DNA of 64,000 nt from Promethearchaeota archaeon (GCA_048941015.1 JBHLNZ010000008.1:16596-80595), one strand, 5' to 3'. Shown: positions 318 through 39,925, counted from the first letter of the stretch. Program-made: numbers and translations. Notes: generated from the sequence alone by a model not told the origin.

Positions 318-2624
318 TTAATTCGAGTATTCTTTTTTATCGATTGGTTGGAAAATGCCTTTTTTAATCAATTGGAGAGTAATCTGATAATCTTTTGGAC
401 TACAGGTATTTTCAGGAATAAGATATAGAAAATAGAAGTAAGGAAAGTTATGTTCTTTCATAAAAGTCTGAGCTTTTTTAACCATATCCCTTTCATCTTG
501 ATTTAATTTCATATCTTTTTTAATTGTGACAGTTAAAGGATAAAGTAAGGAAACATTGAGGTCACTCTCAACTAACTTTTTTATACTTCGAAAAGGTATA
601 AGATTACCTTGAAAGTCATCAATTAATTTGCCATAATATTTATAGATGTGATAAGCAAGAGACTCTATAGAATATATAAAATTTTTAGATGGATTGCTCT
701 TCATAATTACAATTAATCTCAAGTTGATGAATTCCGTCATAAAAATAATTGAATCTTTATACTCTACTTTCACTGTTTTTGAGTTTTTTGCTCCTTCAAT
801 AACTTCAACTCCAAAATTATGAATTGCTTGTAGAAAGCCCGAAATTAGAGTAGGATCTAAATCATTTTTTTCAAATGATTGAGAAAACAAATCGATTCCA
901 GTTTTTACATCAAGAACAATTATATTTTTAATATTCATAATATCATTACATTGTTTTAGAATTAGATTTAGCTTTTCTCTACGTTTTGATCCAACTTTTT
1001 TAATAGCAACATAACTAGAAAATCCAAGAGTTATTCCTCCCCCAATAATTAAGCCAATAATGAGAAAAAAGAAGAGATTCTTATCAGAATTAGTTAAAGT
1101 TGCTTTGGTAATAGTAAAAATTTGGAGACTACTTCCAGCGTCAGTTTCGTTATTCCAAAACAAATAAGCAATATAATCTCCTTCAATTGAATTAGCAGGT
1201 ATTTCATAAGAAAAGAGATTACTTTCTGATGGGAGCTGTTTAAGTAGTTGATATTTTTCTAATCCAAATGGATCATTTAATATAAAAGTATAATTTCCTG
1301 CTAAAATTGGAGAGTTAACAGAAAATCTTAGTTCTTGTTCAATTTTAAAATCAGTTTTAGGTGCATTGATAGTAATATCAATATGAGGTGAGTTAGCTGT
1401 AATCTCCCAATTAACTCCATTTTCAATAATATTATTAGGAATTATGATTGAATGGTCTATAGTGTTAATAATTATTTCTGATGTAATTTCTTCTTGGTTT
1501 TTAAAAATCTTTAGATTAAACCAACTTTTAGGGTATTCAAATTGAACGGTGTGGTTATTTGAAACTCTGGTAATTTCTGGATTGATATTCCATTGATTTA
1601 CTCTATTAGTTGTAACATTTAACTCCCCTGGAGCATTAAAAATATTAGAAATGTTAAAATTGTAATTTAAGCTAAATTTTAAAGTTTCAGTTTTATTATT
1701 CTCAATTTGGATTTCTATTTGTTCATTATGTGGCTTATAATTTATATTATTTCTTTTTAAATATCCTTCTCCTTGAGTATAACCATTCAATACCTGATAG
1801 GAATAACTATTAAATTCTGCTGTCATATTAATTTCTTCAGGATAGACGAGAGTTTCATTCATTCGAATTATTTTATATAAATAAGGAGAATTAGATGTTC
1901 CATTGCTCCATGTGTCTGTATCATCATATTCTGAAGTACTTAGATTCGAATTTGTTGGATCGATGTCATTATAATACCAATAATAACTGTCGTCACCAGT
2001 AGCCGATAAGTTAGTACCGTTTAATACTAAGTAAAAATTACCATCTGGTAATGTTAGTGGAGAGGTAAAATTTTGTAAATACCATCCCTCTTGAGTGGAC
2101 ATATTAATATCCATAGTGAGATAGTAACTATTATTAGGGCTATTACTAATTGAATCATAACCTCTTATCTGAACTTGAATTATTTTTGGATAAGTATCAC
2201 TAACTTTTTTCCCATAAATATAGACTCCATAAAGAGTTTCAGTTTTATTTAACTTAATTTGAACTCCTAACCCTTGACGCCTAAAATTTTTATTTTTGTA
2301 ATAAATATCATTATAAATTCCAGTATAATTTTTATCTTCGATATTTACTATTTCCTTGCCTAGTTCTAATATATCTGTAAAATTAAGTTCAATATCATTT
2401 AATTGCCAATTTGAAGTGGGTAATTCGACTTCAATTGAACTTATATTTTCGAAATTTCCTTGTTTAACAGAAGTTTCATTCATTTCAAAAGAAATATTAT
2501 TTAGAATTAATGATATTTCATTATTATCTGATGATTTAGCTCTTTTAATTGGTATAAAAGATAGAAATAAGCTAAATAGGATAATTACCAATAATAATCT
2601 CTTAAAAATTAAAACAGATTTCAT
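318..2624 (-). CDS. Single-pass membrane protein: signal peptide, beta-rich ectodomain, TM, cytoplasmic longin-like domain (paralog 1, tail subtype A)
   Basis: Hydrophobic N-terminus; many NxS/T sequons; TM LFFFLIIGLIIGGGITLGFSSYVAI then KKVGSKRR; LISGFLQAIHNFG motif shared with three paralogs. Confidence 0.8.
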   Translation of the reverse strand: MKSVLIFKRLLLVIILFSLFLSFIPIKRAKSSDNNEISLILNNISFEMNETSVKQGNFENISSIEVELPTSNWQLNDIELNFTDILELGKEIVNIEDKNYTGIYNDIYYKNKNFRRQGLGVQIKLNKTETLYGVYIYGKKVSDTYPKIIQVQIRGYDSISNSPNNSYYLTMDINMSTQEGWYLQNFTSPLTLPDGNFYLVLNGTNLSATGDDSYYWYYNDIDPTNSNLSTSEYDDTDTWSNGTSNSPYLYKIIRMNETLVYPEEINMTAEFNSYSYQVLNGYTQGEGYLKRNNINYKPHNEQIEIQIENNKTETLKFSLNYNFNISNIFNAPGELNVTTNRVNQWNINPEITRVSNNHTVQFEYPKSWFNLKIFKNQEEITSEIIINTIDHSIIIPNNIIENGVNWEITANSPHIDITINAPKTDFKIEQELRFSVNSPILAGNYTFILNDPFGLEKYQLLKQLPSESNLFSYEIPANSIEGDYIAYLFWNNETDAGSSLQIFTITKATLTNSDKNLFFFLIIGLIIGGGITLGFSSYVAIKKVGSKRREKLNLILKQCNDIMNIKNIIVLDVKTGIDLFSQSFEKNDLDPTLISGFLQAIHNFGVEVIEGAKNSKTVKVEYKDSIIFMTEFINLRLIVIMKSNPSKNFIYSIESLAYHIYKYYGKLIDDFQGNLIPFRSIKKLVESDLNVSLLYPLTVTIKKDMKLNQDERDMVKKAQTFMKEHNFPYFYFLYLIPENTCSPKDYQITLQLIKKGIFQPIDKKEYSN

Positions 2625-2703
2625 CTTATTGAAATTTCAATTTCAACTTTCTCTACATTCTAATCATTATTTTCGAAATAAATAATTTTCCCTTTTTTAG
2701 AAT

Positions 2704-3558
2704 CTATTCTGATTTTTGTAAATCTTGAATAATACTTTCCATTCTTTTTTTCACATTACTTCTCAAAAATCTATGGCGATCGGTTGGAATGTAAAATTTA
2801 TCATCATTCAAGATGGTTTGATATAGAATATCAGCCACAAATTTAGGAGTTATTCCATTCTTAATAGATTGACGATAAGCATTAATGAGTGGTTCTAGTT
2901 TAGGATTAGTTTTTATCGAATTATCCAGTTCTTTAGGTCTATTTCTATCACTGGTACAGAGGTTTGTCTGCACAAAACCAGGGCAAAGAGCAAAAACTTT
3001 TATCTTACTGCCTAAAAAAGCTAATTCATGTTTTAAGGACTCACTTATGGCGATTACAGCAAACTTAGTTATACTATATATGCTTGTTCCAATAGCAGGG
3101 GTAATTAAACTTGCCATAGAGGCGGTATTAATAATAATGCATTCCGTTCCTTGTCTAATCATAATAGGAAGAAAAACATGAATCCCATTTATTACGCCCC
3201 ATATATTAACATCAAAAATCCATTTCCAGTCATTTAATGAATTTTCCCAGATAGATGTTGACGAATTTCCAGAAAATCCTACTCCAGCATTATTGCATAA
3301 GATATCTACTTTTCCATAGTTATCGATACACGTTTTAGCTAAAGATCTTACATCATCAATTTTTGCTACATCTGTTAATATTCCTAAAACATTTGGATTA
3401 AATTGTCGAATTCTCTGTTCTGCTTCTAATAAAGCTTTCGATTCTATGTCTGCCAATACTACTTTGATACCCTCTTTTGCGAATTTTTCAGCTATTCCAT
3501 ATCCAATTCCACTAGCAGCACCAGTGATAACAGCTACTTTATCTTTAAATTCCTTCAT
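2704..3558 (-). CDS. Short-chain dehydrogenase/reductase
   Basis: TGAASGIG, NNAG, YSITK (YxxxK). Confidence 0.95.
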   Translation of the reverse strand: MKEFKDKVAVITGAASGIGYGIAEKFAKEGIKVVLADIESKALLEAEQRIRQFNPNVLGILTDVAKIDDVRSLAKTCIDNYGKVDILCNNAGVGFSGNSSTSIWENSLNDWKWIFDVNIWGVINGIHVFLPIMIRQGTECIIINTASMASLITPAIGTSIYSITKFAVIAISESLKHELAFLGSKIKVFALCPGFVQTNLCTSDRNRPKELDNSIKTNPKLEPLINAYRQSIKNGITPKFVADILYQTILNDDKFYIPTDRHRFLRSNVKKRMESIIQDLQKSE

Positions 3559-3721
3559 ATTTTTAATTATGTTATATATATTTATAAAGACTCACACATT
3601 TGTCAATCCTAATAATTTAAAAACTAAACTGATTAATTATTTGAAAAACTAATAATCATCAATAGGATGTTTTAATGTCAATTCTCTTTTAAATCATAAA
3701 TAAGCTTATCACCAACGAAAA

Positions 3722-4234
3722 ATGTATGATGCGATATTTAAGATTGTAATTTTTGGGGATGCTGGTTGTGGTAAAACTGCTTTAACAAAAAGGTTTATTA
3801 CTGATATGTTTATCCCAGATACCCAAATGACAATTGGAGTTGAATTTGAAATTAAAAGTATGGAGATTGGTGATCAAATGGTCAAACTCCAGATTTGGGA
3901 TTTTGGAGGTGAAGAAAGATTCAGGTTTCTCCTTCCTAAATACATTAGAGGCGCCTCTGGGGGTGTGCTGATGTATGATATCACAAACTATAGTTCCCTC
4001 TCTCATGTTGATGACTGGCTTTCTGTAATAAAAGAAAACCAAGAGGTTTTTCCAATAATATTGGTTGGCGGTAAGGCTGATTTAGAAGAGGATCGCGAAG
4101 TTAGTAAAGAAGAAGGTTTAAAGATTGCTTATTCGAGAGGGATCAATAGCTTTCTTGAATGTTCGAGTAAAACTGGAGAAAATGTTGAAGAAATTTTTAT
4201 TCTATTAACTGAAAATATGTTAAAAAAAATATAA
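3722..4234 (+). CDS. Rab-like small GTPase
   Basis: GDAGCGKT, TIGVEF, WDFGGE, GGKAD, CSSK. Confidence 0.95.
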   Translation: MYDAIFKIVIFGDAGCGKTALTKRFITDMFIPDTQMTIGVEFEIKSMEIGDQMVKLQIWDFGGEERFRFLLPKYIRGASGGVLMYDITNYSSLSHVDDWLSVIKENQEVFPIILVGGKADLEEDREVSKEEGLKIAYSRGINSFLECSSKTGENVEEIFILLTENMLKKI

Positions 4235-4281
4235 AATAGGAAAAAAAAAGAATTTTAAAACTTTAAAATGGTAGATATGAC

Positions 4282-5319
4282 CTATATTTGATATCTTTGG
4301 TTAATAACGGTTTGAAATTGAATATTTGGTTTTTCTTGGTGTTGATACCCGCCTCTTTTTGAAACCAAATAAAATTGTACCATTGTTTCATCATGAACTA
4401 GCGAAATTCCTCGCCATTTATTATTATTTGATTTGAATTCTACAACATTTCCGAGACCAATACCTTTTCTTTCTGAGAAATCAAGCTCTAATTTGTTTAA
4501 GACTTTTAGAAATTCATCGTGGTATTCAATATTTTCTCTTTTTACAGATTTCTCCTTGAATCTTAAAGCTTCTATTGAAAATGCTCGAATAATATCTGTA
4601 CTCATAAATTTCCATGCCTCTGAGTTAGCATAGAATTCAATTCCAATGAATTCATTATTAATAAAAACAGCAATTCCACATTGGTTATCAATATTTTTGA
4701 AATGTTTAACTATATCTTCTGTTTGTTTCTCAATATGCTTTGTCATTTCAAGATAACTTTGAGTAGGAGCTATATTTGCAGCATATTTCATTTCAGCTCT
4801 GTGAGATTGGATTTCATTCCAAACTCCAGCTTGACCTACAGCTGAAATTGCCTCAAAGGCAACGTTTGGATGAAGTCTTGTTGTCGAAGATTTAAAGTTT
4901 TTACCTTTTACGTAGCTCCATCTTGATTGCTCAACGCATTTAGCAGGGATAACATATTTCTGTCCCAAATTTTCAGGGTTAGTCCTTAATATGTTTCCTT
5001 TTCCACCTGATGGTAATAGGATAGGCTCCCAGATTGTCCTATCTTGCTTTCCACCATGGACTGTCATTCCGAATGGGATTAACAGTTGTTTATCACTTTT
5101 ATTAATAACTTCTAATTGACTAACTGTGTCTGATTCTATTACTTCTATTAAATTTAGTTCTTCAGCTTCTTTTATACTAATAAAATCAATGAATTTATCA
5201 TCTTGAACAATAATGGGGATAACTGTCATATTTTTATAAACTTGAGGATTACCCAATTTAAGAAAACCAAATGGAGTTTCAAACATTTGTTTTACAAACT
5301 GAATATTTTCCCTTTTCAA
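4282..5319 (-). CDS. ARPP-1 (DUF6569)-like protein
   Basis: V..LEVINKSDKQLLI, GGKQDR, IPAKCVEQSRW, Q.GVW.EI pattern recalled for this family. Confidence 0.75.
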   Translation of the reverse strand: MKRENIQFVKQMFETPFGFLKLGNPQVYKNMTVIPIIVQDDKFIDFISIKEAEELNLIEVIESDTVSQLEVINKSDKQLLIPFGMTVHGGKQDRTIWEPILLPSGGKGNILRTNPENLGQKYVIPAKCVEQSRWSYVKGKNFKSSTTRLHPNVAFEAISAVGQAGVWNEIQSHRAEMKYAANIAPTQSYLEMTKHIEKQTEDIVKHFKNIDNQCGIAVFINNEFIGIEFYANSEAWKFMSTDIIRAFSIEALRFKEKSVKRENIEYHDEFLKVLNKLELDFSERKGIGLGNVVEFKSNNNKWRGISLVHDETMVQFYLVSKRGGYQHQEKPNIQFQTVINQRYQI

Positions 5320-5321
5320 AC

Positions 5322-5732: not shown

Positions 5733-5743
5733 ATTTTTAAAAC

Positions 5744-5971
5744 CTAATTTATATTTAGATTAGAATTTAAATTAAAATCTCCAAATTCCTTAACTTTTTC
5801 AAATTGAGAAATATGATAACCACACATAGGACATTCATTTTTCATTTCTTTAGATTGAATGTCAAACGCTTTAAATGAAAATCCACAAACCGGACAAATT
5901 ATCAAAATTGGAGATTCCATTCCCTTCATCTTTTTTTTCATGTTTTTTATTTTTTCTTTCACAATAATCAT
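5744..5971 (-). CDS. Small Zn-ribbon protein
   Basis: CPVCG...CPMCG; 11 bp upstream of the ArsR gene; true start may be a later Met. Confidence 0.7.
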   Translation of the reverse strand: MIIVKEKIKNMKKKMKGMESPILIICPVCGFSFKAFDIQSKEMKNECPMCGYHISQFEKVKEFGDFNLNSNLNIN

Positions 5972-8362: not shown

Positions 8363-10516
8363 ATGGTTAATAATAATAAGTTATCTAAGCTAAAACCTCA
8401 TGGTCGGGTAGATGAAACGGTTATTGATAGGCTTGCTGAAATCTGGCCTGAACCAAGAGAACAGCTGCATTTTGGAGGATGGAAGGCTACTTACCAATTA
8501 GTTGAAAAATTAAAACTAGACAAAGCGAATAGGATTTTAGATATATGTTGTGGAGAAGGAGGGACAGCTTGTTGGCTAGCAAAAAAATATGGAAGAAGAG
8601 TCAGTGGTGTAGATATTTTAAATAATGCGATTGAAGTAGCAAGAAGTAAAGCAAAAAATTTAGGCGTTTCAGATTTAGTTGATTTTGTATGTTCTGATAT
8701 TTTCGAATTACCTTATCCAGATTCAACCTTTGATGTAATATATGGTCAAGATCCAGATGGTTTAGCCCATAAGGATAGAAAATTAATATTTAAGGAACTG
8801 GAAAGAGTATTAAAACCTCATGGTAGATTCGCTTTTCAGCTTTGGATACCTTTTCTAAGCGTACCTGATGAAAAAATAAAATACTTTGAGAGTATTACCG
8901 CTAAAGTTGGTTTTCCAGAGATGGGTCGCCTTTCTGTTAATGAATTTGTTGAAGATTTAAAAGAAGCAGGATTTACCAACATAATTATTGAAGATTTAAG
9001 TAACCTATATGAAGAGCATTTGAGAAAAATGGAAGATATATTTAAACAAAAACTTAAATCACCAGACAAATGGCATAATATGCTTTTGAAGTTAATAGAT
9101 GATGGTTATAAAATAGGTGTTAGGATTATTGCTAAAGTAAAAAAAGATCTAAAAGATCAAATATATAGAAAAGAATTACCAAAAGCCGAAGATCTTTACT
9201 TTTATGGAACGGGAATATACAGTCCTGATTATATATTTGATTTCAATACCATTGCTGAAGAAAAAAAATTTAGAAATCTAATTCTTGATTACTTAAATGA
9301 AAATTTTCCAAAATATAATTGGAATATTAAAGGAAAAGGTGTTTTAGCATCTGGAACTGTAGATAATTATTCACCTCCAAAGGTTGGATGTTTTTTAAGT
9401 GTAAATATCAATCAAGCTCTACTCTCAAAAAAATTTAATATTAGAATTAACGATAAAAAATACCTTGATTGCCACATTGATGATGCTTTTATAGATATAT
9501 ACCATTTTAATTGTGCTATTTTGCATTTTATTCTGTATATTCCCAATGAGTCTTGGCAAGATAAAGAAGTTCTCAAAAGAGTGCGTTTTTTTGTCCAAAA
9601 ACATCAACACCCCATAGAGGAATTTGGAATCGATATGGAGTCAATTTTTGCTCCTATAATAACTGAATTGAATTCAATATTTACAAAGGTAGTTAAAGAA
9701 ATAAAACCACCTGTCTTAAAAACACCATTCTTGGATTTTACTCAGTTGAGTGAAGAAGTACCAACTAAGCTATTTTGGACACACAGTACTATAGTAGCTG
9801 CGATGCTTGAGGGATTTGATCCAAATACGAATCATTTTCAAGAAATTCTTCTCAATGTTAATCCAAAAGGGATATATAATTACTCTATTTTACCAAATAT
9901 TTTTGCATATGTTGAGTCCGGGGATTCACTAATTTGTATACCTAATGTTCCAGATATACGGAATAGATCACCTAAAGTAATAATAAAGGAGGATTGGATA
10001 TCTTGGATTGCAATACAGCATTATACATGGAAAACCGTATGGGAGTTAGACAGAGGATTCTATATCCTCTTGAATGTTGTTACTTCTCATTTAAAACATA
10101 AACGGGCCGAACAATATCGTGATGTTTACGCTGTTAATGCATTAATTAATCATATTTATTTAGTTTTAGATACTCATAAACCGAGAAATGTCACTTCTAC
10201 ATATTATAGCATGGATTTTATTGAAAAAATAAGAGATGCTTGGAGAACTGATAATATTTTAGAAGCTGCTATTTCAAAAATGGAAACATTAAGAGATTTA
10301 ATTAGTCAATTAGATGAAATTGAGAACGCAAGGAGGAGTAAACGTTTAGAATTATTTCTTACTTTACTTGGAGTTTTCACATTAGGTAGCTTGGTACTAG
10401 ACTTTCTAGGGGCTATGTCTTTTAGTGATCAAGTACCATATTGGATAAGTTTATTTCTAGGGATATCAATTCCATTTGGATTTTCTTTAATTGCTTACAA
10501 GTTGTTAAAGGATTGA
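8363..10516 (+). CDS. Class I SAM methyltransferase fused to a large domain ending in two TM helices (CorA-like topology)
   Basis: LHFGG, ILDICCGEGG, GVDI, FDVI, LKPHG in first ~260 aa; long helix followed by two TMs at C-terminus. Confidence 0.75.
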   Translation: MVNNNKLSKLKPHGRVDETVIDRLAEIWPEPREQLHFGGWKATYQLVEKLKLDKANRILDICCGEGGTACWLAKKYGRRVSGVDILNNAIEVARSKAKNLGVSDLVDFVCSDIFELPYPDSTFDVIYGQDPDGLAHKDRKLIFKELERVLKPHGRFAFQLWIPFLSVPDEKIKYFESITAKVGFPEMGRLSVNEFVEDLKEAGFTNIIIEDLSNLYEEHLRKMEDIFKQKLKSPDKWHNMLLKLIDDGYKIGVRIIAKVKKDLKDQIYRKELPKAEDLYFYGTGIYSPDYIFDFNTIAEEKKFRNLILDYLNENFPKYNWNIKGKGVLASGTVDNYSPPKVGCFLSVNINQALLSKKFNIRINDKKYLDCHIDDAFIDIYHFNCAILHFILYIPNESWQDKEVLKRVRFFVQKHQHPIEEFGIDMESIFAPIITELNSIFTKVVKEIKPPVLKTPFLDFTQLSEEVPTKLFWTHSTIVAAMLEGFDPNTNHFQEILLNVNPKGIYNYSILPNIFAYVESGDSLICIPNVPDIRNRSPKVIIKEDWISWIAIQHYTWKTVWELDRGFYILLNVVTSHLKHKRAEQYRDVYAVNALINHIYLVLDTHKPRNVTSTYYSMDFIEKIRDAWRTDNILEAAISKMETLRDLISQLDEIENARRSKRLELFLTLLGVFTLGSLVLDFLGAMSFSDQVPYWISLFLGISIPFGFSLIAYKLLKD

Positions 10517-10533: not shown

Positions 10534-11073
10534 TTAAGAATCAAATTTCTTAATCATTTCTTTTGTTAATTCATAGAAAATTTCATCAACTTTTATTGCT
10601 TCTTTTGCACTTGCTTCAAAAAACATGCATGAAGATAAATCTTCTTTAAGTTCAGTAAATTGTTCTTTATTTAGATTATTATCTTTGGGATTTATTAAAT
10701 CAATTTTATTTCCAACCAAAACATTGGGTAAAATCCCAGCTTTTGATTCAACTTCATCTTTCCATTTCCTTATACTTTCAAATGTATTATTCCTAGTTAG
10801 ATCAAAAACATACACTATTCCCTTCGCACCTTTATAGAAAGCATGCCGTACCCATTGAAAATGGTCCTGCCCTGCTAAATCCCATACTTGTAAAGTAATG
10901 ATATTCTTAATTTTAGGAAATTTGAGATATTTAACAAAAAAATTGGATCCAATTGTTCTTTCTGCATCAGAAATAAATCTTCTCAGTAAGTATTGATGAA
11001 GTAAAGTAGTCTTTCCTACTTCAGAATCTCCAACAATACATACTTTATAGAAATATTTTCTTGCAAGAATCAT
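10534..11073 (-). CDS. Rab-like small GTPase
   Basis: GDSEVGKT, TIGSNF, WDLAGQ, GNKID, EASAK. Confidence 0.95.
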   Translation of the reverse strand: MILARKYFYKVCIVGDSEVGKTTLLHQYLLRRFISDAERTIGSNFFVKYLKFPKIKNIITLQVWDLAGQDHFQWVRHAFYKGAKGIVYVFDLTRNNTFESIRKWKDEVESKAGILPNVLVGNKIDLINPKDNNLNKEQFTELKEDLSSCMFFEASAKEAIKVDEIFYELTKEMIKKFDS

Positions 11074-14428: not shown

Positions 14429-14434
14429 CTCTCT

Positions 14435-26726: not shown

Positions 26727-27305
26727 ATGAGTAGTGAAGAGATTAGTAGCGAAGCCTTTTGGAAAAAAAAGATCAAAGATCATAAGATTGCATTTATAAT
26801 TATGATTATTGCAGGTGCTTGTGCAATTCTTGGATTACTACTAGTATTATTCTGGTTTATAGGTGCATCTCCTCTCGGGGGTAATGGAACTTGGACTTTC
26901 AATCAATGGTCAGTAGGCACATTATTATTATTTTTTGTGTTTTTGGTTTTATTTGAGCTTTTGTTTGTTGGCGTTCCAGCAGCTCTATTTTTTGGAATTG
27001 GAGGATATTTATGGTGGCGAAGATTACCAACTGAAGAAAAACAAGAATTTAAAGACAGAGAGAAGAAAGAGACTCATAAAAAGAGAAACTGGGGTGGTGG
27101 GGGTGGATTTAGTTTCTTTATATTCCTTGCTTATTGTATTTATTTAGCAGTTGATGGTAACTTCAATACAGCATTTGGTACTTATCCCTATACTTATTGG
27201 CTCTATACATGGTTCCTAACAATAATGTGGATTGTGATTGTGCTTGGTGTTCCAGCTGGTATAATTTTACTTATTGTCTACTTTAAAGTATGGCGAAAAA
27301 AATAA
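26727..27305 (+). CDS. 4-TM membrane protein of unknown function
   Basis: Four hydrophobic segments; charged loop ending WGGGGG. Confidence 0.75.
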   Translation: MSSEEISSEAFWKKKIKDHKIAFIIMIIAGACAILGLLLVLFWFIGASPLGGNGTWTFNQWSVGTLLLFFVFLVLFELLFVGVPAALFFGIGGYLWWRRLPTEEKQEFKDREKKETHKKRNWGGGGGFSFFIFLAYCIYLAVDGNFNTAFGTYPYTYWLYTWFLTIMWIVIVLGVPAGIILLIVYFKVWRKK

Positions 27306-27352: not shown

Positions 27353-29617
27353 TTAATTATCTAAAGTTTGAAAGATAGCTTTATTTATCAATTCTAAGAT
27401 AATATTTGCGTCCTTTACTTGAAATCCCTCTTTAAGTGAAAATAATTTCGAAACATAGAAGTGATTTGTATTACTTATTTTCATAATTTCTTTTGCTTTA
27501 CTTATCATTGATTTTTCGGTCTTATTCATCTTAATCTTCACGGATTCATCAATTTTTAATGGATAAATCAGCTTTATAGGTAATCTATTTTCAATTAAAT
27601 CTTTAATACCTTCGAATTTGGAGATTTCTCCATCGAAATTTTGAAATAGATTTCCATATTTCTCATCAATGTCGTATGATAAGGTTTTAATTGAATCCAA
27701 AAAATCTTCAGAAGGATTTTCCTTCATAATTAAGGTCATTCTGAAATTTTTAAACTCAGCCATTAAAATCTTTGATTCTTGGTATTCAAGCCGAATAGTT
27801 TGGGATTGCTTATTAGAGCCAGTAAGGTCAATTCCAAATGACCGAATTGCTTGTAAAAATCCCGAAATAAGAGTAGGGTTGAGTTTCTTACTGGCGAGAA
27901 TTTGATCATAAACATTAATACCTCCTTCTTTTTCAAGAACCATAATGTAATCCAAGTTTAAAATATCCATGTATTTATTGTATATCGCTTTTCTGTATTC
28001 TTCTCTTTGTTTTTTAATTCTTTTAATCAATTTAAATGAGGTAAAACCACCAGCAGCACTTACGGCACCTATTATCGAAATTGATGCGATTAAAATTGGA
28101 ATAATATCGATATTTACGGAAAAAGTTTGAATCTTTAATCCCGCAGCAGAATTATTATTCCAAAAAACAGCTGCAGTATACGCTCCTTCATTCGGATTTG
28201 AAGAAAGCGTATAAGATAAAACAATCTCTTCTGAAGTAATTTCAATAATTTCAATAGATTCATTATATTCTGGATAATCGAACGGATCATATAAAATATA
28301 AGTAAGATTTCCTGGTATAATTGGGGGTAAAACAGAAAATTTTAAATCTTGATCTGGTTCATATGCTACTTTTGGAACCTCTAAAGTGAGTTCCATATTA
28401 TTTGATTGCGCAGAAATGACCCAATCAGAATCAAGAGTAATAGTTTCATTTGGGATAATTATATAATCAGAAGTAAGATTGATTTGAGATGTAATATCTT
28501 GCCCATTTCTGAGTACCAAAAGGTTGAACCAATTTTTAGGATATTCAAATTTGAAGGTGTAATTATTTGAAATTCTTGATATGTCTGGAATTAGTGTCCA
28601 ATTATTATATGAATTTTGTTTAATTAAGAGGTTGCCTGCTGAAATGATTGCATTCTTCAATCCAATTTTATATGAGAGATTAAAGTACAATTCAATAGAA
28701 TTATTATTACTAATAAAAACGTCTAAATAATTCTTATTGGGAGAAAAATCTATTCCAGTCACTGTTAAATTTCCTGTGCCAATTTCAAATCCATCTATGA
28801 TATTGTAAATTTCATTATTTATTTCAGCAGTCATATTGATACTTTCAGGATAATAAGTTCTATTTACCCTTTGAATTAGTTTATGTAGAAAAGGTGAACC
28901 TTCTTTACCTTGTCCCCATATCCAATTCATAAGAACTCTGCTAAATTGAGAAATATGTAGGGTTGGATAGATTGGGCTTAAATTATTATAAAACCAATAA
29001 ATAAGAGTATCATCAGATGCAACAAGACTTGAACCATTCAACACAAAATAGTAATTTCCTGGTTGCAGTAAGACAGGGCTTCCAAAAACCTGATTATACC
29101 ACCCTAAATTTTGAGACATATTTAATTCTATACTAGCGTAAATAGAATCATTTGGTCTGTCAATAAGATCACTATAACCACGTATTTGAACAAGTATCTT
29201 TTCTAAACCCTTTTCTATAGGTGCTGCTCCATATATTTGAACTCCAAAAATTGTTGTTTCTTCAGTCAATTTTATTTGTACTCCAAGACCTCTAATTTCA
29301 CTATTTAACACTCCAAAACCGACAGTTGTATTATCCTCAATCGTCTTAACTTCACGATCTAGTTTAATGTTAGTAAAATTCAGTTCCAAATTTGTCACAT
29401 TCCAAGTATCTAAAGTTAAAGGAATTTCTATAGAGCTATTACTTTCCATAGAATCCATAATGTCCGCATACTCCATCATACTAGCATTAATTGGTTGATT
29501 TAGATAAATATAAGGAGCTTGAGCTTTAGAAATTTGGAATGAATCTACCATATTAAGAGAAAAAATTAAAATAAGTAAGAAGTATAAGAAACACTTTAAA
29601 ACTTTAGATTTTTTCAT
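27353..29617 (-). CDS. Single-pass ectodomain-TM-longin-like protein (paralog 2, tail subtype B)
   Basis: GLGVQIKL, F.YPKNWFNL, TM, LISGFLQAIRSFG. Confidence 0.8.
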   Translation of the reverse strand: MKKSKVLKCFLYFLLILIFSLNMVDSFQISKAQAPYIYLNQPINASMMEYADIMDSMESNSSIEIPLTLDTWNVTNLELNFTNIKLDREVKTIEDNTTVGFGVLNSEIRGLGVQIKLTEETTIFGVQIYGAAPIEKGLEKILVQIRGYSDLIDRPNDSIYASIELNMSQNLGWYNQVFGSPVLLQPGNYYFVLNGSSLVASDDTLIYWFYNNLSPIYPTLHISQFSRVLMNWIWGQGKEGSPFLHKLIQRVNRTYYPESINMTAEINNEIYNIIDGFEIGTGNLTVTGIDFSPNKNYLDVFISNNNSIELYFNLSYKIGLKNAIISAGNLLIKQNSYNNWTLIPDISRISNNYTFKFEYPKNWFNLLVLRNGQDITSQINLTSDYIIIPNETITLDSDWVISAQSNNMELTLEVPKVAYEPDQDLKFSVLPPIIPGNLTYILYDPFDYPEYNESIEIIEITSEEIVLSYTLSSNPNEGAYTAAVFWNNNSAAGLKIQTFSVNIDIIPILIASISIIGAVSAAGGFTSFKLIKRIKKQREEYRKAIYNKYMDILNLDYIMVLEKEGGINVYDQILASKKLNPTLISGFLQAIRSFGIDLTGSNKQSQTIRLEYQESKILMAEFKNFRMTLIMKENPSEDFLDSIKTLSYDIDEKYGNLFQNFDGEISKFEGIKDLIENRLPIKLIYPLKIDESVKIKMNKTEKSMISKAKEIMKISNTNHFYVSKLFSLKEGFQVKDANIILELINKAIFQTLDN

Positions 29618-29827: not shown

Positions 29828-32095
29828 CTAAGCTTTTGTTGTTGGGGTAAAGACTCCTTTATGTAATAAATCCAATATTGTTTTGTAATCTTTTGGAGTA
29901 CACACATTCTCAGGGAGCAAATAAACTGAATAAAAGTAATTAAAATTATTTTCTCTCATAAATTTCATTGCTTGATCAACCATTTCTTTCTCTGCTTGGC
30001 TCAATTTGATATGTTTCGATAAATCAATTTTTAGAGGGGATAAGAATGAGGTTGTAAGGTGCTTTTCAATAAGATCATCAATACCTCTAAATTGCTTTAT
30101 ATTTCCTGAAAAAGTATCAATTAAATTACCATATGTTTTAAAGATATCATAGGCTAAATCTTCTATCAAATATAAGAAATTACGAGAAGGTTGTTCTTTT
30201 AATATAGTAATAAGCCTTAGATTTACGAACTCAGTCATTAGCATTAATGAATCTTTATATTCTAATTTCACAGTACGTGAATCTTTCGCTGCTTCTGAAA
30301 CCTCTGTTCCAAAAGATCTAATAGCTTGAAGAAATCCTGAAATTAAGGAGGTATCTAATTTTTTTGCCGCAAAAGTTCTGGAAAATATGTCAATACCCGA
30401 TTTATTTTCAATAACAATAATATATTGTAAATTAAGGATATCATTACATTTGTTTAAGATGCTTTCTAGCTTTCCTCTTCTTACTGTGCTTAATTTCTTT
30501 ACAGCAATATAAGTAGACCCACCTATTGCTGCACCAATTATAGAAATTAACAAAATAATCAACCCCAATGGATTATTATTATTGGGTATAGAAATTGTAA
30601 TATTAAACTGTTGATATTGAACTCCTGCATCTGTTCCATTAAAGAAGAACAAATAAGCAAAATAAGTACCTTCAACTGCATTGGAAGGGATTTCATAAGA
30701 GAAAATGAAATCACTTGTGGGATTCAATATTGAAAATCTATGTTCTTCAAATCCCGAGGGATCACTTAAGAGAAATGTATAATTTCCCGCTATAGGATTT
30801 AAAATGGAAAATCTCAATTCCTGTCCAAGGTTATATTCTGTTTTAGGAGCATTTATTTCTAAAGGAATATAAGGAGAATAGGCTTGAATCTCCCATTCTG
30901 CACCATTTGATATCATGTCATCTGGTATAAAAATATAGTTTTCAATGTTGTTAATTTCTACTCCTGAAGAAATATTTACTTGATCTTTATAAACAGTTAA
31001 ATTCTCCCAGCTGCTTGGATAATCAAATCTAACTGAGTAATTATTTGAAGCCCTAGTAATACTAGGGGTTATGCTCCATTTATTTGATGAACTCAAATTT
31101 ATTGTGAGAAGAGATTGGCTAAAAAATTGATGATCAATATAAATTTTGCTACTTACATCAAACTTTAGATAACTAGAACGATTATTATAGACAGAAATAG
31201 TATAAGGTGTGATTGAAGGAAAAAAAGTCAAACCAGATTGTTTAATAGTACCTTCTCCAGCGGAAGATCCATTAGAAACCGTGTGAAAAACATTATTTAT
31301 CTTAATAGTCATATTATTATTTTCCGGATAAAAAGATACATTTAATTTGCGATAAAGCTTGTATAAAAAGGGAGCTCCATAATCTCCAGCGTTCCATTGA
31401 TTAGTGTAATTTAAGGTATACAAACTATTATCCAAAGGATCAATTGCGTTATATGCCCAGTAGAATCCAACATCATATCCCGGATTATATATAGGAAGAG
31501 AAGATCCGTTTAATACAAGAAAATAATTACCAACATTTAATGGTTGGGTAGTGAAATTCTGAAAGTACCATCCAGGAGTAGTAGAAATATTTAAATTAGT
31601 TGAACCATAAACCGTATTATTTGGAATGTTATTAAAACTGTCATATCCTCTTAATTGTATCTGCGGAGTGCCTATATGAGAGCCATTATATCCATAGATA
31701 TAGATACCATGGATAATTGAAGGTTCTGTTAAGTTTATTTGCACTGCTAAACCTAAAACCTTTTGAGGTCCATTTTTATAAAATACTCGTTTATAGGTAC
31801 CATGAAAGGTATCTTCCATAGTAACATTATCAATACCAAATTCGATATTAGTAAAGTTTAAATCAATAGCATTAAGCTGCCAAGAGCTAGAAGGTAAATT
31901 TATATTAACCTCGGTGGTATTTTGTAGTTCATTATCTATTGTTGCGTTTTCATTGAGTTCAAAATAAGTATTAATGTTTAATGAACCTTCAACTCCATTA
32001 GCTTCGACTATTTGCGAATTGGACAAAATTCCAAATAGAATAAATCCAATGATTGAAATTATTAAAATAAACCTTAAGAAATCAGCCTTCCTCAT
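29828..32095 (-). CDS. Single-pass ectodomain-TM-longin-like protein (paralog 3, tail subtype A)
   Basis: GLAVQINL, FDYPSSW, TM, LISGFLQAIRSFG. Confidence 0.8.
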   Translation of the reverse strand: MRKADFLRFILIISIIGFILFGILSNSQIVEANGVEGSLNINTYFELNENATIDNELQNTTEVNINLPSSSWQLNAIDLNFTNIEFGIDNVTMEDTFHGTYKRVFYKNGPQKVLGLAVQINLTEPSIIHGIYIYGYNGSHIGTPQIQLRGYDSFNNIPNNTVYGSTNLNISTTPGWYFQNFTTQPLNVGNYFLVLNGSSLPIYNPGYDVGFYWAYNAIDPLDNSLYTLNYTNQWNAGDYGAPFLYKLYRKLNVSFYPENNNMTIKINNVFHTVSNGSSAGEGTIKQSGLTFFPSITPYTISVYNNRSSYLKFDVSSKIYIDHQFFSQSLLTINLSSSNKWSITPSITRASNNYSVRFDYPSSWENLTVYKDQVNISSGVEINNIENYIFIPDDMISNGAEWEIQAYSPYIPLEINAPKTEYNLGQELRFSILNPIAGNYTFLLSDPSGFEEHRFSILNPTSDFIFSYEIPSNAVEGTYFAYLFFFNGTDAGVQYQQFNITISIPNNNNPLGLIILLISIIGAAIGGSTYIAVKKLSTVRRGKLESILNKCNDILNLQYIIVIENKSGIDIFSRTFAAKKLDTSLISGFLQAIRSFGTEVSEAAKDSRTVKLEYKDSLMLMTEFVNLRLITILKEQPSRNFLYLIEDLAYDIFKTYGNLIDTFSGNIKQFRGIDDLIEKHLTTSFLSPLKIDLSKHIKLSQAEKEMVDQAMKFMRENNFNYFYSVYLLPENVCTPKDYKTILDLLHKGVFTPTTKA

Positions 32096-34678: not shown

Positions 34679-34687
34679 GGTATTTGT

Positions 34688-35596
34688 ATGTTGAATAATG
34701 AACTAAAATCCTTTATTAAAGATATTTTCGATAATAGTGAACTTAATAAGCTTCCCGAGAAGTTTGGAGGAGAGAGATTTTTTGCTGATCCTATAATTGG
34801 GGTTGCAAGAGGCGATGATCCAATCTTTCAAAAATTTAAAGAAGTAGTTGGTCCTGAACATCTTACTCCATTAGAGATGTGGATTGAAAATGGATTAGAA
34901 AAGACTCCCGTATCAAATCTCTTTACAATATCAATAGTTTTTCCATTTGTTGAGAGAATTCGTAAAGAAGGAAGTGAGAATCAAGTGATAAAAACTCGTA
35001 TTACGTTGCCAGCTGAAATATATTCTATTGCTCGAAACTATGCTAATGATTTTAAAATTTTTGTAATGGAAGAGATAATTAAGTTTTTCAAGGAAAAGGA
35101 TTATCATGCCACAGCTGGTATGCTTAGTAATGCATTTACTATTATTGCTAAAGGTAGATTCTATTCTACTTGGTCAGAAAGGCATGTTGCATTTGCAGCG
35201 GGTTTAGGAACTTTTAGCTTACATGAAGCTCTAATTACTGAAGTTGGATGTAATGTACGTTTGGCATCAGTAATAACCAATGCTCCTCTCGAAATTACAG
35301 TAAGAAAAAGTGATGAACCTTATGCAAATTGCTTATTTTATACCAAAGGAACTTGTAAAGAATGTATAAATAAATGCCCTGCAAATGCAATTACAGAAAA
35401 AGGGCATGATAAAATACAATGTAATAATTATCGTTTAAAAGTCGCAAGAAGAATGATACCCCGCCTTACTCCATTACTCAAACCATATTTAAGAAGAATA
35501 AATTGGGAAGATAAAGATGATACCTTTCCTGTAGGCTGTGGTTTCTGTCAATTTGGGGTTCCATGTATGGATAAAAATCCAATGAAAGACCCTTAA
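34688..35596 (+). CDS. QueG/reductive dehalogenase-like Fe-S protein
   Basis: WSERHVAFAAGLGTF, GCNVRLASVIT, CKECINKCP, GCGFCQFGVPC. Confidence 0.85.
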   Translation: MLNNELKSFIKDIFDNSELNKLPEKFGGERFFADPIIGVARGDDPIFQKFKEVVGPEHLTPLEMWIENGLEKTPVSNLFTISIVFPFVERIRKEGSENQVIKTRITLPAEIYSIARNYANDFKIFVMEEIIKFFKEKDYHATAGMLSNAFTIIAKGRFYSTWSERHVAFAAGLGTFSLHEALITEVGCNVRLASVITNAPLEITVRKSDEPYANCLFYTKGTCKECINKCPANAITEKGHDKIQCNNYRLKVARRMIPRLTPLLKPYLRRINWEDKDDTFPVGCGFCQFGVPCMDKNPMKDP

Positions 35597-35696
35597 GCTA
35601 CTTAATAATAGGATTTTTAGTAATTTTTATATAAAATTACAAACTACAATTGCTATTCAAAAAATTTAAAATAATTAAATGTGAAGTGTTTATTAA

Positions 35697-36074
35697 TTGG
35701 CGAATATAATCTTGATAATTATTGGGGCTCTTCTTACTATGGGATGGGGAGTTAGTCATCTTATCCCAACAAAGAACGTTGTAAAAGATTTTGGTGATAT
35801 AACAGAAGATAATAAAAATATTATTACAATGGAATGGATTATCGAAGGATTCACATTAATATTTATTGGATTACTTGTGATACTTATTACATTCTTAGGA
35901 GGAGTAGAAAATAATGTTTCACAATATGTATTTTTGATCTCTTCAATCATGCTCTTCGCTTTAGCAGTCCTATCTTTATTTACAGGATTCAAGGTGAATT
36001 TTATTCCATTTAAACTATGTCCTGTTATTTTTACCCTTTCTGGTATTTTAATTATACTTGGCACATATCTCTGA
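35697..36074 (+). CDS. Small 4-TM membrane protein
   Basis: WGVSHLIPT, MEWIIEG, FKLCP; four hydrophobic segments. Confidence 0.75.
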   Translation: MANIILIIIGALLTMGWGVSHLIPTKNVVKDFGDITEDNKNIITMEWIIEGFTLIFIGLLVILITFLGGVENNVSQYVFLISSIMLFALAVLSLFTGFKVNFIPFKLCPVIFTLSGILIILGTYL

Positions 36075-36098
36075 ATAAATAATCAATCTTTTTCTTTT

Positions 36099-37610
36099 TT
36101 AAGTTCCAGCTATTCTTTTTGGCCATCTTGTTTGTGCTTTAAGATTCTCGTGCAATAACTTATTTACTAGTTTAAACCGCATTTCTTTAAAACCCTCATC
36201 AAACCATAAATTATTTAGCTCGTGTGGATCGTTTTGTCTATCATAAATATCTCCAAAACCGGGTTTACTTTCATACACAGTTAATTTATATTGTTCAGTT
36301 ATTAAATGTCTCAAACGAGATTTAAGAGTGCCAACCTCTTCATCATTTTCAATTAGGATACAATCTCGTACTTGTATTTGAGGATCCTCTAAAATTGGTG
36401 TTATATCATAACCTTGCATATCTGGAGGATGATAACGTTCTTTAATATTTAATAGATTCAAAATTGTTTTTGGATAATCGATTGAACTAATTAAACTCTC
36501 CGATATTGCAGGTTTGGTTAAGCCAGGTACTTTCCAGATTAGTGGAAGTTGCAAAACTCCGTTAAAAGGGCAAGGTCCTTTAAATAGTAATCCGTGGTCC
36601 CCCATCAAATCACCATGATCACTAGAATAAACAATAATAGTATTATCAGAATATCCTAATTTATCCAGAGTCGCTAAAATTTGACCGATGCTATAATCTA
36701 CATATGCTATTGCAGCATAAGTTAACGCTGTGATTTTTTTTACCTCTTCTTCGGTCGATTCTCGTATAAATGCCTTTTTAAACGGTGGGCTTTTCAAATG
36801 GTACCCTATAAATTCATGATTATATAAATTCTTAATATCATTGAAACTTGGTGGCAATTCTATATCTTCCGGTTTGTATTGATTTTGGTATTGCATAGGT
36901 GGAAATAATGGATAATGGGGATCAGGGAATGAACAATGAAGATAAAAAGGTTTACCTCCATAATTTCCTTTAGCATTCCTCTCCAGAAAAGAAATTGTTC
37001 GTTCTCGGACAAAAGTAGTATTATAAAGATCTTCAGGGATCTCATCACAGAAAAGACTGAAGAGATTATCATAATTTTTCACCCTTTTTCTCATCTTTTC
37101 TGCTATTTCTGGGGATCTCTCTTCTAACCATTCTAAATAATGACCAGAGCAAACAGTACCGTTACCCGATATTAATTCAACTTCATCATACCCATAATAG
37201 GGCATAGGAAAGTTTTTAGAAGAAACTTTTCTATCTGCCCATTCATCAAGACTTTCTACAGATCTATATTTATGTTTGAAAGCACCTAACCAAAATTGAT
37301 GGTGAATTTTTCCTATCGCTGCTGTGTGCCAGCCTCTGCTTTGTAAAGTTTGCGTAATAGTCGGAATATTCTTATTTAAATTTATACCGTTACTTCTTAC
37401 ACCATGTACATTTGGATAAAGTCCTGTAATTAAAGTTGCTCTATTTGGCATACAAATTGGGTTGTTACAGAAATAATTTGTAAACCTAACACTTTCTTGT
37501 GCTAGTCTATCAATATTAGGTGTCTTCAAATTAGGATTACCAGCACATCCCAAATGATCTGCTCGTTGAGCGTCAGTTATTATAAATAAAACGTTTTTAT
37601 TTTCATTCAT
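36099..37610 (-). CDS. Cys-type sulfatase
   Basis: NVLFIITD, CMPNRATLITG (CxPxR), GKIH, DPH, SDHGD. Confidence 0.95.
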   Translation of the reverse strand: MNENKNVLFIITDAQRADHLGCAGNPNLKTPNIDRLAQESVRFTNYFCNNPICMPNRATLITGLYPNVHGVRSNGINLNKNIPTITQTLQSRGWHTAAIGKIHHQFWLGAFKHKYRSVESLDEWADRKVSSKNFPMPYYGYDEVELISGNGTVCSGHYLEWLEERSPEIAEKMRKRVKNYDNLFSLFCDEIPEDLYNTTFVRERTISFLERNAKGNYGGKPFYLHCSFPDPHYPLFPPMQYQNQYKPEDIELPPSFNDIKNLYNHEFIGYHLKSPPFKKAFIRESTEEEVKKITALTYAAIAYVDYSIGQILATLDKLGYSDNTIIVYSSDHGDLMGDHGLLFKGPCPFNGVLQLPLIWKVPGLTKPAISESLISSIDYPKTILNLLNIKERYHPPDMQGYDITPILEDPQIQVRDCILIENDEEVGTLKSRLRHLITEQYKLTVYESKPGFGDIYDRQNDPHELNNLWFDEGFKEMRFKLVNKLLHENLKAQTRWPKRIAGT

Positions 37611-37684
37611 ATTTTTCTGTTTTATACCTGACCTTGTTTAGATGATTATGAAAAAAAGAAAAGCGCAAAATAAAAAATTTTTTT

Positions 37685-39925
37685 TTAAAATGCAGGTTCA
37701 AATATATTTTTATCAATTAAGCTGAATATGGTCTCAATTTCTTTAGAATCAAATTTATTCTGTTTAAATAATTTTGAAACGTAAAAATATTTTGAACCAT
37801 CACTTTTTATGAGTTGTTCAGCCTTTTGAATAATTTCTTTTTCTATTGGATTAATTTTTGTTGCTCCAGTCTTTATTATCTTTAAAGGATATAAGAAAGA
37901 AGTTTTTAAGTTCTTTTTAATTAGAAGTTCCATATCATTAAAGGGTCTAACGTCACCTTTAAAATTTGCGAGGTATTTGTCATACTTTTCACCAATATCA
38001 ATAGCAAGTGCCCTTATGGAATCTAAGAACATATGAGAAGGAGTATCATTCATTATAAGGATAATTCGAAAGTGTTTAAATTCAGCCATTAATATCTTTG
38101 ATTTCTTATATTCGAGTTTTATTGTTTGGGTTTGATCGTCTGAGTCTGTTAGCTCTATTCCAAACGTCCTAATAGCTTCGAGAAAACCTGAAATAAGGGT
38201 AGTATCTAAAACTTTTCCAATAAAAGATTGTTCATATATATTTAAAGCAGATTTTTTATCGGAAACTATTATGTATTGGATATTCAGAAGATCATTACAC
38301 TGATCATATATTGCTTTTCTATATAGTTCCCGTTTCTTTTTGGCTTTTTTAATTAAAGTATAAGATGTGCTGGTGACTGCTAAAGTTGAACTAATAGCAA
38401 CAAATATAAGAATTAAAGTTAAAGGATTTATCGTAAACGGTACAATGATTTTAAATACCTGTGTCTCAACTCCTGCGTGAGTTCCATTGAAAAAATAGAT
38501 ATACACAATATAATCTCCTTCTATGGCATTATTAGGTATAGTATAAGAAAAGGTGTTATCAATTGAAGGGAGAGTCTTTGAAATATTATATTTCTCAAAA
38601 CCGTAAGGATTAATTAATTGAAAAGTGTATGTTCCTGGTAATGGTGAGTCTGAAAGAGAAAATTGTAATTCTTGACCAACTCTATATTGTGTCGAGGGTA
38701 TATTTAAGATGATTTCAGTATTTAATGAATTTGCGGTTATTTCCCAATCAGCTCCATTATCAATCGAATCATTTAAAATTATTATATACTTATCAATAAG
38801 ATTCTCTTGTATTTCTGACGTTATATCAATTTCATCCTTTAATACCTTTAAATCAAACCAATTTTGTGGATAATAAAATTGAACAGAATAGTTACATTCG
38901 CATCGCGAAATGGTTGGCTTAATACTCCAAATAGGATTTTGATTTGCTTTAATAAAAACTGATCCCTCAGAGTTTAAGATATTTTTCATATTAATTAAAT
39001 ATGAAACATTAAATGCTACTTGTACTGATTGGTTATGTAAAACAGGTACATATAAATTAGTACTATTCGGAAAAAGATTAAGATCTTCTATGGTTAAATT
39101 TCCTGTCCCAGGATTGATGCCATTTGAAACATTATAAACTTGGTTATTGATTGATAATGTCATATTAATATCTTCTGGTTTATAAGTAAGATCAGTCCTT
39201 TGAATTAGTTTATGTCTAAACGGTATTCCTGGCCCGTCTTCAATCCAATTTGGAGTATCATATTTTGCAATATACAAGCTTGTATGGGGTGAATCATCTT
39301 CATTCAAATACCAGGAAAGATCGGAATTATCATTTGTTTTATACTCAGAACCATTTATTAACAGATAATATTGTCCTGTAGTTAGGGATATAGGTGTTGG
39401 AAAATTTTGTATATACCATCCAAGATCATCAACAGTAACATTTAGTAAAACAGGTTCTCCATATATTGTATTATTTGGAGCATGAGTTATTTGATTATAG
39501 CCATTAATTTGCACATAAACATCACTAGAAAGTGGTATATTCAGATAGAGATATATATAAACTCCAAAAAGAAGGATATCATCAGTTATATTTAATTGGA
39601 CTCCATATCCTTTCGATCCTTTATTTATTACCTTGAAACTTGTTCCTCCTTCTTCTATTGACTTGATTTCTTGTCCTAATTTGATATCAGTAAAATTTAG
39701 ATCCATCCCTGTAATATTCCAATCCGAGGAGGGTAATGTAATATTAAGGGCATTTATATCAGAGTCTTCATGACTTTGATTTGCATATTCGATTAATTGA
39801 TAAACTGAGGTCTCAGTTAGTGAATCTTCATTTAACTGAGAAAAAGAAAAAGGAGTTTGAGAAATAATTCCAATCGTAGTAAAGATTAAGAGTAAAGAAA
39901 TAACTAAAATTTTTCGCTTAATCAT
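37685..39925 (-). CDS. Single-pass ectodomain-TM-longin-like protein (paralog 4, tail subtype B)
   Basis: GYGVQLNI, FYYPQNWFDL, TM, LISGFLEAIRTFG. Confidence 0.8.
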   Translation of the reverse strand: MIKRKILVISLLLIFTTIGIISQTPFSFSQLNEDSLTETSVYQLIEYANQSHEDSDINALNITLPSSDWNITGMDLNFTDIKLGQEIKSIEEGGTSFKVINKGSKGYGVQLNITDDILLFGVYIYLYLNIPLSSDVYVQINGYNQITHAPNNTIYGEPVLLNVTVDDLGWYIQNFPTPISLTTGQYYLLINGSEYKTNDNSDLSWYLNEDDSPHTSLYIAKYDTPNWIEDGPGIPFRHKLIQRTDLTYKPEDINMTLSINNQVYNVSNGINPGTGNLTIEDLNLFPNSTNLYVPVLHNQSVQVAFNVSYLINMKNILNSEGSVFIKANQNPIWSIKPTISRCECNYSVQFYYPQNWFDLKVLKDEIDITSEIQENLIDKYIIILNDSIDNGADWEITANSLNTEIILNIPSTQYRVGQELQFSLSDSPLPGTYTFQLINPYGFEKYNISKTLPSIDNTFSYTIPNNAIEGDYIVYIYFFNGTHAGVETQVFKIIVPFTINPLTLILIFVAISSTLAVTSTSYTLIKKAKKKRELYRKAIYDQCNDLLNIQYIIVSDKKSALNIYEQSFIGKVLDTTLISGFLEAIRTFGIELTDSDDQTQTIKLEYKKSKILMAEFKHFRIILIMNDTPSHMFLDSIRALAIDIGEKYDKYLANFKGDVRPFNDMELLIKKNLKTSFLYPLKIIKTGATKINPIEKEIIQKAEQLIKSDGSKYFYVSKLFKQNKFDSKEIETIFSLIDKNIFEPAF

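Follow-up and report, generated by a model that had tools for sequence, protein, structure and literature searches.

The window analysed here is a 64,000-nucleotide stretch of DNA from a Promethearchaeota archaeon (GCA_048941015.1, JBHLNZ010000008.1:16596-80595; G+C 28-32%), and our subject is a family of four paralogous, receptor-like proteins encoded on its minus strand, each of which joins a predicted ectodomain to a cytoplasmic tail modelled as a longin domain. An original prediction, made from the DNA alone, had proposed four open reading frames (ORFs) with one common architecture and tail motif, no visible kinase or cyclase, an ectodomain outside and a tail inside the cell, and four small GTPases in the same window. 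These particulars hold. The four ORFs, of 746-768 amino acids (aa), lie where they had been placed and the four GTPase genes are found (Table 1); the proteins are 37-46% identical in full-length alignments, and the motif LISGFL[QE]AI..FG ... EY ... M.EF..R ... PS is invariant across the alignment. A Pfam search of the four full proteins returned no family above threshold, and hence no kinase or cyclase is recognised.

Architecture and topology of the four paralogs

In each paralog, a signal peptide with a hydrophobic N-terminal segment is followed by a sequon-rich, all-beta ectodomain, one further, transmembrane (TM) segment with a KK/KR-rich stretch directly after it, a basic juxtamembrane helix and a cytoplasmic tail of ~225 aa. 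The ectodomains contain 18-22 N-x-S/T sequons each, against 7-11 in composition-preserving shuffles (P <= 0.0005), and every tail contains one. Because the sequon excess is confined to the ectodomain, the TM segment is single and the basic flank lies after it, an N-out, C-in orientation is supported, and signal peptide, single TM segment, positive-inside flank and external sequons are together those expected of a type-I N-glycosylated membrane protein. The TM segment has the family consensus IIG....Gs...G..SY...KK, with a glycine-zipper or small-residue face, and some homologs, e.g., P0092, match the p75NTR TM family (PF18422). Both features fit helix-helix packing in the membrane. The juxtamembrane helix carries a Cys (QCNDI, KCNDI and QCNDL in paralogs 1, 3 and 4; Tyr in paralog 2) that is nearly invariant in an alignment of 58 rows chosen among the best matches to full-length paralog 1 (A4). 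A 192-aa ORF without a Pfam match (26727-27305, plus strand) is convergent with paralog 2 and ends 48 bp from the paralog 2 stop.

Table 1. Positions of the four paralogs, the parts of paralog 1 and the small GTPase genes in the window
Feature	Position	Strand	Description
Paralog 1	318-2624	minus	768 aa; clade A in the tail tree; dispersed copy; ORF and translation
Paralog 1, signal peptide	2535-2624	minus	about residues 1-30; hydrophobic N-terminus after basic residues
Paralog 1, ectodomain	1077-2534	minus	residues 31-516; 21 sequons; modelled jelly roll, middle beta-sandwich and membrane-proximal MG/FN3/Ig-like sandwich
Paralog 1, TM helix	1002-1076	minus	small-residue face; from hydropathy and family consensus
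Paralog 1, basic juxtamembrane helix	936-1001	minus	net charge +5; helix 2-22 of the tail model
Paralog 1, longin domain	543-935	minus	tail residues 23-153; AlphaFold2 topology, structural matches, Foldseek E 2.5e-5
Paralog 1, winged-helix-like unit	321-542	minus	tail residues 154-227; strand-three helices-strand order in the model
Paralog 2	27353-29617	minus	754 aa; clade B; downstream gene of tandem pair; tail 27356-28024
Paralog 3	29828-32095	minus	755 aa; clade A; upstream gene of tandem pair; tail 29831-30499
Paralog 4	37685-39925	minus	746 aa; clade B; dispersed copy; tail 37688-38350
Rab-like GTPase, atypical	3722-4234	plus	Pfam Ras E 1.8e-47; 1.1 kb from paralog 1; candidate partner only
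Ras/Rab-like GTPase	10534-11073	minus	GDSEVGKT, WDLAGQ, NKID
Gtr1/RagA-like GTPase	52642-53850	plus	402 aa; N- and C-terminal extensions
Arf-like GTPase	57483-58517	minus	344 aa; ~170-aa N-terminal domain before the GTPase

Modelled folds of tail and ectodomain

The tail was modelled with AlphaFold2 from an alignment of 40 rows (A3), taken from the window, from elsewhere in its genome and from short database matches, with a predicted local distance difference test score (pLDDT) of 90 and a predicted template-modelling score of 0.84. In this model, residues 2-22 form a helix continuing from the membrane, and residues 24-148 run as two strands, a helix, three strands and two helices (DSSP: E24-31, E37-42, H50-67, E76-81, E84-91, E94-100, H106-128, H135-148), which reproduces the five-stranded sheet order and the two C-terminal helices of the longin fold. 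Foldseek on the tail returned AP sigma, zeta-COP, Rag C-terminal domains, LAMTORs and MglB, with E from 2.5e-5. When its best 1000 chains were re-aligned, the top 50 of 50 PDB matches were longins (Z 9.0-11.6, 113-133 residues aligned, tail ~20-153), Sec22b reaching Z 11.6 and the non-GTPase longins VAMP7 and AP sigma/mu also being among the closest. An independent search without Foldseek, covering 48,161 PDB representatives, had longin domains in its top 29 rows (Z 8.3-10.7), comprising synbindin, Sec22, VAMP7, SRX, AP mu/sigma, CPLANE, the Lokiarchaeal 8yqg, sedlin, Mon1-Ccz1 and Lst4. Roadblock proteins scored lower there (Z 7.0-8.3 over tail residues ~18-128); in comparison with them, the tail does have a helix before the sheet, the juxtamembrane one, yet its two C-terminal helices are longin-type. 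The assignment of residues ~23-153 to a canonical longin domain is therefore sound at the level of the model, and the longin call that had originally been made by eye was right. Sequence methods do not detect the fold: the Pfam families PF13774 (Longin) and PF19031 (Intu_longin_1) match neither the four proteins nor the isolated tail, sub-threshold longin matches occur in distant soluble relatives only (L012, Longin, E 0.028; L013, Intu_longin_1, E 0.026), and when PDB sequences were searched with a profile of the tail alignment, nothing beyond a chance match (E 0.89) came up.

What had been described as a short helical tail behind this domain is better read as a small unit of its own, since in the model residues 154-222 follow a strand-three helices-strand order (E156-158, H168-183, H191-194, H202-213, E217-219) and the C-terminal ~70 residues resemble a winged helix. 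The sole structural match is the insert of MetAP in 2dfi (Z 7.2, 63 residues aligned, tail 154-222), and neither PDB search returned a match spanning the longin domain and the C-terminal unit together. Winged-helix Pfam matches are sub-threshold and occur in paralog 2 and relatives, the protein-atlas neighbour clusters of the tail carry TrmB in 52% of members or HTH_47 in 11%, and the unit is mildly basic (mean net charge +3.6).

The ectodomain model, built from the 58-row alignment, is all-beta with a pLDDT of 92. Residues ~56-228 form a jelly roll most similar to the Cwp84 lectin-like domain (Z 12.6, 149 residues aligned, root-mean-square deviation 3.1), phage tail and capsid decoration domains being matched as well, and residues 384-481 form an MG/FN3/Ig-like sandwich close to the MG domains of alpha-2-macroglobulin and complement (Z 11-12; alpha-2-macroglobulin Z 11.8). 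Foldseek added arrays of the Eph-receptor and galactose-oxidase type. As modelled, this is a binding ectodomain on a stalk, with no enzyme visible.

A widespread tail, A/B gene pairs and kinship to GTPase-fused longins

Searches with full-length proteins found 182 relatives at E <= 0.001, all named 'hypothetical', in metagenome-assembled genomes (MAGs) labelled Promethearchaeota, Loki-, Thor-, Hod-, Hermod-, Odin- and Heimdall-. A tail-only search gave 496 cluster representatives, with the tail usually at the C-terminus of proteins of 700-1470 aa. The census across Asgard genomes put forward in the original prediction places the tail, at E <= 1e-10, in 175 of the 301 genomes of the phylum and, in several copies per genome, in all 68 genomes of the family to which the window belongs. 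Within the genome of the window, the tail profile recovered a fifth close paralog on contig C48, together with four further type-I proteins (713, 810, 1453 and 1703 aa) in which other sequon-rich ectodomains precede the same TM-longin-~70-aa ending, so that at least nine surface proteins of this genome combine a signal peptide, an ectodomain, a TM segment and a longin domain, with differing ectodomains. Since it is attached to varied ectodomains and present in so many genomes, the tail of TM segment, longin domain and winged-helix-like unit is a common output module for surface proteins. Soluble longin proteins, with or without the winged-helix-like unit, were also found in this genome by the profile. 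Two of them, of ~460 aa (L006:991-2361, minus strand, contig C58; L010:1318-2733, plus strand, contig C50), have a Cys-rich N-terminus, the same longin-winged-helix module (E 1e-31 to 1e-32) and a C-terminus of helices that weakly match TPR/MIT, and look by sequence like free-standing receptor tails. A receptor fragment 57% identical to the tail stands at the end of a 5.3-kb contig (L093, JAUVYZ010000166.1) filed under a Phycisphaerae bacterium MAG, probably through mis-binning of an Asgard contig.

A tree of 106 tails separates two clades, A (paralogs 1 and 3) and B (paralogs 2, 4 and 5), each with support of 0.94-0.96. Two or three family genes occur together at 23 of the 80 related loci, and an A gene lies upstream of a B gene in 14 of the 16 co-oriented pairs, which amounts to about three observations and not fourteen, related loci not being independent by kinship. 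The other two co-oriented pairs are B then B and none (0/16) is B then A; there are, in addition, A, A, B triplets at two loci and convergent pairs of A with B at three. The tandem pair of the window fits this pattern, with paralog 3 (A) upstream of paralog 2 (B) across a 210-bp gap. The sequencing runs listed for these sequences comprised DNA from sediment and mangrove metagenomes only, with no RNA run among them. Because A and B partners form three matching sub-lineages in the tail tree, the pair is ancient and its members have co-diverged. Gene order thus points to A/B hetero-oligomers, and the pairing is the best clue to mechanism, since longin domains commonly act as heterodimers of paralogs.

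The strongest link to GTPases is indirect and comes from sequence kinship. A hidden Markov model (HMM) of the longin part of the tail matches two longin-GTPase fusions on contigs C50 and C136 of this genome, neither of which was used to build it (E 5e-15 and 7e-9), and the helix-1 signature [DE]..L[IV]SGF[LI].A...F is common to receptor tails and GTPase-fused longins of this genome; the tail therefore belongs to the same sequence family as the GTPase-fused longins. Longin-longin pairing may then be a way for these fusions to dock on the tail. The tail profile has no match to the Arf-like or Gtr1/RagA-like GTPase of the window.

The neighbouring GTPase genes say less. The closest GTPase gene is 1.1 kb away for paralog 1, 198 bp away and co-oriented for paralog 5, and at 12-19 kb for paralogs 2, 3 and 4, so that only one of the four window GTPases lies within 1.1 kb of a receptor gene. 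This atypical Rab-like protein lacks a C-terminal Cys and reads WDFGGE where DTAGQ is usual and GKAD where NKxD is usual, and close paralogs of it (68-69% identical) are encoded at C122:3349-3867 and on C16 of this genome. Its orthologs (86, 71 and 71% identical) abut paralog-1 orthologs at three loci, divergently at L019 and tail to tail at L020 and L023, and the neighbour is kept only in the paralog-1 lineage (4 of 9 loci, two arrangements); this may be inherited synteny, and as a link to the receptors it is weak. A complex prediction for the paralog-1 tail (A3) with this GTPase (A5) scored 0.19, below the 0.32 mark, and is no evidence either way. The GTPase gene just downstream of paralog 5 (C48:2929-3453) contains a run of N, its middle part reading X, and a GTPase gene at L027:3689-4234, with the motifs of the Ras/Rab-like gene of the window (GDSEVGKT, WDLAGQ and, for NKID, NKLD), precedes a clade-A receptor gene by 171 bp. 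Other genes of the window are a protein with an ARPP-1 domain (4282-5319, minus strand; Pfam E 6e-50) and a 717-aa protein (8363-10516, plus strand) in which Pfam recognises an N-terminal S-adenosylmethionine methyltransferase only and not the remaining ~450 aa.

A putative docking platform and its alternatives

The reading that we favour, tentatively and with somewhat less than even confidence, is that these proteins are type-I A/B receptors or adhesins whose paired longin tails form a putative docking platform, likely for a GTPase. They would be N-glycosylated surface proteins of a Lokiarchaeia-type Asgard archaeon, presenting outside a lectin-like jelly roll for some ligand on a beta-sandwich stalk and crossing the membrane with one glycine-zipper TM helix. 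The working unit would be an A/B hetero-oligomer, proposed because the two ancient tail subtypes are usually encoded as an A-then-B pair, in which two longin domains pair after the pattern of the longin heterodimers of eukaryotes. This joint tail would be fixed at the membrane as a platform for a cytoplasmic partner, most likely a small GTPase, or a longin-GTPase fusion joining through longin-longin pairing. Longin pairs form the GTPase-binding platforms of Mon1-Ccz1, TRAPP, GATOR1, FLCN-FNIP and SRX-SRbeta. The tail shares its fold with such heterodimers (synbindin Z 10.5-10.7, Fuzzy/CPLANE Z 10.2-10.7, Mon1-Ccz1 Z 7.8-8.5), and, as in Mon1-Ccz1, TRAPPC1/C4, Fuzzy-Inturned, NPRL2-NPRL3 and FLCN-FNIP, a pair of diverged paralogs is retained, in this family as A/B gene pairs; a longin domain followed by a small C-terminal unit is also reminiscent of NPRL2/3. 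Unlike the eukaryotic platforms, to which they have no detectable sequence similarity, the window proteins span the membrane and carry an ectodomain, their heterodimer and their GTPase binding are putative, and the GP motif of longins acting as GTPase-activating proteins (GAPs) is absent. A membrane-held longin that docks an Arf-like GTPase is known from the SRX domain of the signal recognition particle receptor alpha with SR-beta (5ck3, 1nrj; Z 9.6-10.7), but in that receptor a soluble longin protein is anchored by its GTPase, SR-beta, whereas the window proteins cross the membrane themselves and carry longin domain and large ectodomain in one chain. Ragulator-Rag and MglB-MglA recruit GTPases to membranes with a related fold, and their stacking of like domains offers a model for the docking of longin-GTPase fusions, although these roadblock platforms are weaker matches (Z 7.0-8.3, about 100 residues aligned) and the two C-terminal helices of the tail are longin-type. 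A more ambitious version, in which an A/B heterodimeric receptor has a putative membrane-fixed longin docking site or guanine nucleotide exchange site for a small GTPase or a longin-GTPase fusion, so that binding to the lectin-like ectodomain switches a Ras-superfamily GTPase and any signal flows through a kinase-free pathway, we consider unlikely.

Several observations weigh against a GTPase platform. A common fold says nothing of function, and longin domains also act without GTPases, as in SNAREs and AP sigma/mu. The pairing of A and B proteins is taken from gene order alone. In the genome, 63 proteins match the Ras HMM and a custom profile finds 83 GTPase ORFs in 3.59 Mb, one per 43 kb, so that four GTPases in 64 kb, where 1.5 are expected (Poisson P about 0.06), are near background. 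The flanks of the 80 related loci contain 13 GTPases in 793 kb, which is background without enrichment, a GTPase lies within 500 bp in 5 of the 80 as compared with 4.7% for any gene of this genome, and none of the conserved neighbours of the family is a GTPase gene; next to L072, the nearest ortholog of paralog 5, the GTPase that adjoins paralog 5 is not present. In none of the 271 retrieved relatives is the tail fused to a GTPase. The absent neighbourhood signal agrees with observations on MK-D1, whose GTPase genes, as a rule, do not share operons with longin genes (Tran et al., 2024; PMC10933270). Of the original receptor-to-GTPase proposal, the longin fold and the type-I topology stand; the step to direct GTPase recruitment or regulation is still an inference, given the window density near background and the flanks without enrichment.

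The absence of GTPase enrichment nearby is what would be expected if the proteins were adhesins or coat glycoproteins whose longin-winged-helix tail only anchors, sorts or clusters them, on the actin cytoskeleton, ESCRT parts or protrusions, with no GTPase involved and by analogy with the SNARE and AP sigma/mu longins that bind peptides and adaptors. The lectin/adhesin-like ectodomain and the place of Sec22b, VAMP7 and AP sigma/mu among the closest structural matches are in line with such a role, and the many paralogs per genome with heavy predicted glycosylation fit the 'numerous surface proteins' of Lokiarchaea without an S-layer (PMC9834061). The tail, however, is conserved beyond the need of a passive anchor and related in sequence to GTPase-fused longins, and the conserved A/B pairing suggests a specific two-part cytoplasmic assembly, and we regard this alternative as somewhat improbable.

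The C-terminal unit raises the question of whether the proteins are instead membrane-tethered one-component regulators, the winged helix binding DNA at the membrane in the manner of ToxR/CadC, or after proteolytic release, with the longin domain dimerising or sensing. Soluble tail relatives do combine longin domains with winged helix-turn-helix (wHTH) units (L012 matches HTH_47 at E 7e-4, plus TrmB and MarR), and the atlas clusters and the mildly basic charge of the unit point the same way, but all winged-helix matches stay below Pfam thresholds, the structural match is a single one, and winged-helix units beside longins in eukaryotic complexes bind proteins. Moreover, ToxR/CadC-type regulators have an N-terminal cytoplasmic wHTH, a TM segment and an outside sensor, whereas the order here is reversed (outside domain, TM segment, longin, C-terminal winged-helix-like unit), and no cleavage site or protease partner was seen; such a regulator is, in our estimate, quite improbable. 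Least credible, and in our view very improbable, is a catalytic longin of the GAP type (FLCN, SMCR8, NPRL2-like) that would switch off a Rag- or Arf-like GTPase at the membrane. Asgard longins carrying a GAP signature exist (PMC12290439), Arg R95 of the tail, a candidate counterpart of the arginine fingers FLCN R164 and NPRL2 R78, is invariant in the four paralogs, and GATOR1 and SEA longins are among the matches (Z 7.4-7.8), ranking, however, under the SNARE, AP, SRX and TRAPP longins. GAP longins (FLCN, SMCR8, NPRL2) are marked by a GP motif between strands 1 and 2 (PMC12290439), whereas the corresponding loop of the four paralogs, reading VKTGI, KEGGI, NKSGI and KKSAL (K-[ST]-G-[IL], or S-A in paralog 4), has no Pro and thus lacks the motif.

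The longin proteins described so far in Asgard archaea differ from this family in setting rather than in kind. The first Loki genome had 41 longins (PMC4917890), and Asgard longins, longin-GTPase fusions and 'NPRL2-like' longins have been described (Klinger et al., 2016, as cited in PMC4917890; Liu et al., 2020, preprint 10.1101/2020.10.19.343400; PMC10933270; PMC11188069). The receptor tail is of the same fold and lineage (Lokiarchaeal longin 8yqg, Z 9.7-9.9), but the described proteins are soluble, stand-alone or fused to a GTPase, TRAPPC3, Vps28-C or adaptin-ear, whereas the window proteins are type-I and glycosylated, with the longin in the cytoplasmic tail ahead of a winged-helix-like unit. 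A membrane-spanning glycosylated longin receptor was not found described in the searchable full-text literature, and the family is a new architectural variant of the known Asgard longin proteins.

Asgard genomes encode dozens of small GTPases together with longin and roadblock proteins, whose role is an open question in work on the origin of eukaryotes, and we know of no upstream input to the Asgard GTPase switches. Widespread surface glycoproteins with a longin domain behind the membrane would be a concrete candidate for such an input. The family is retained as A/B pairs and shows sequence kinship to GTPase-fused longins, and the conserved gene pair makes the hetero-oligomer idea testable. 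Even if no GTPase were involved, the family would still name a major class of unexplained Lokiarchaeal surface proteins; if the receptor-to-GTPase reading were true, it would mean a kinase-free signalling pathway in the closest archaeal relatives of eukaryotes.

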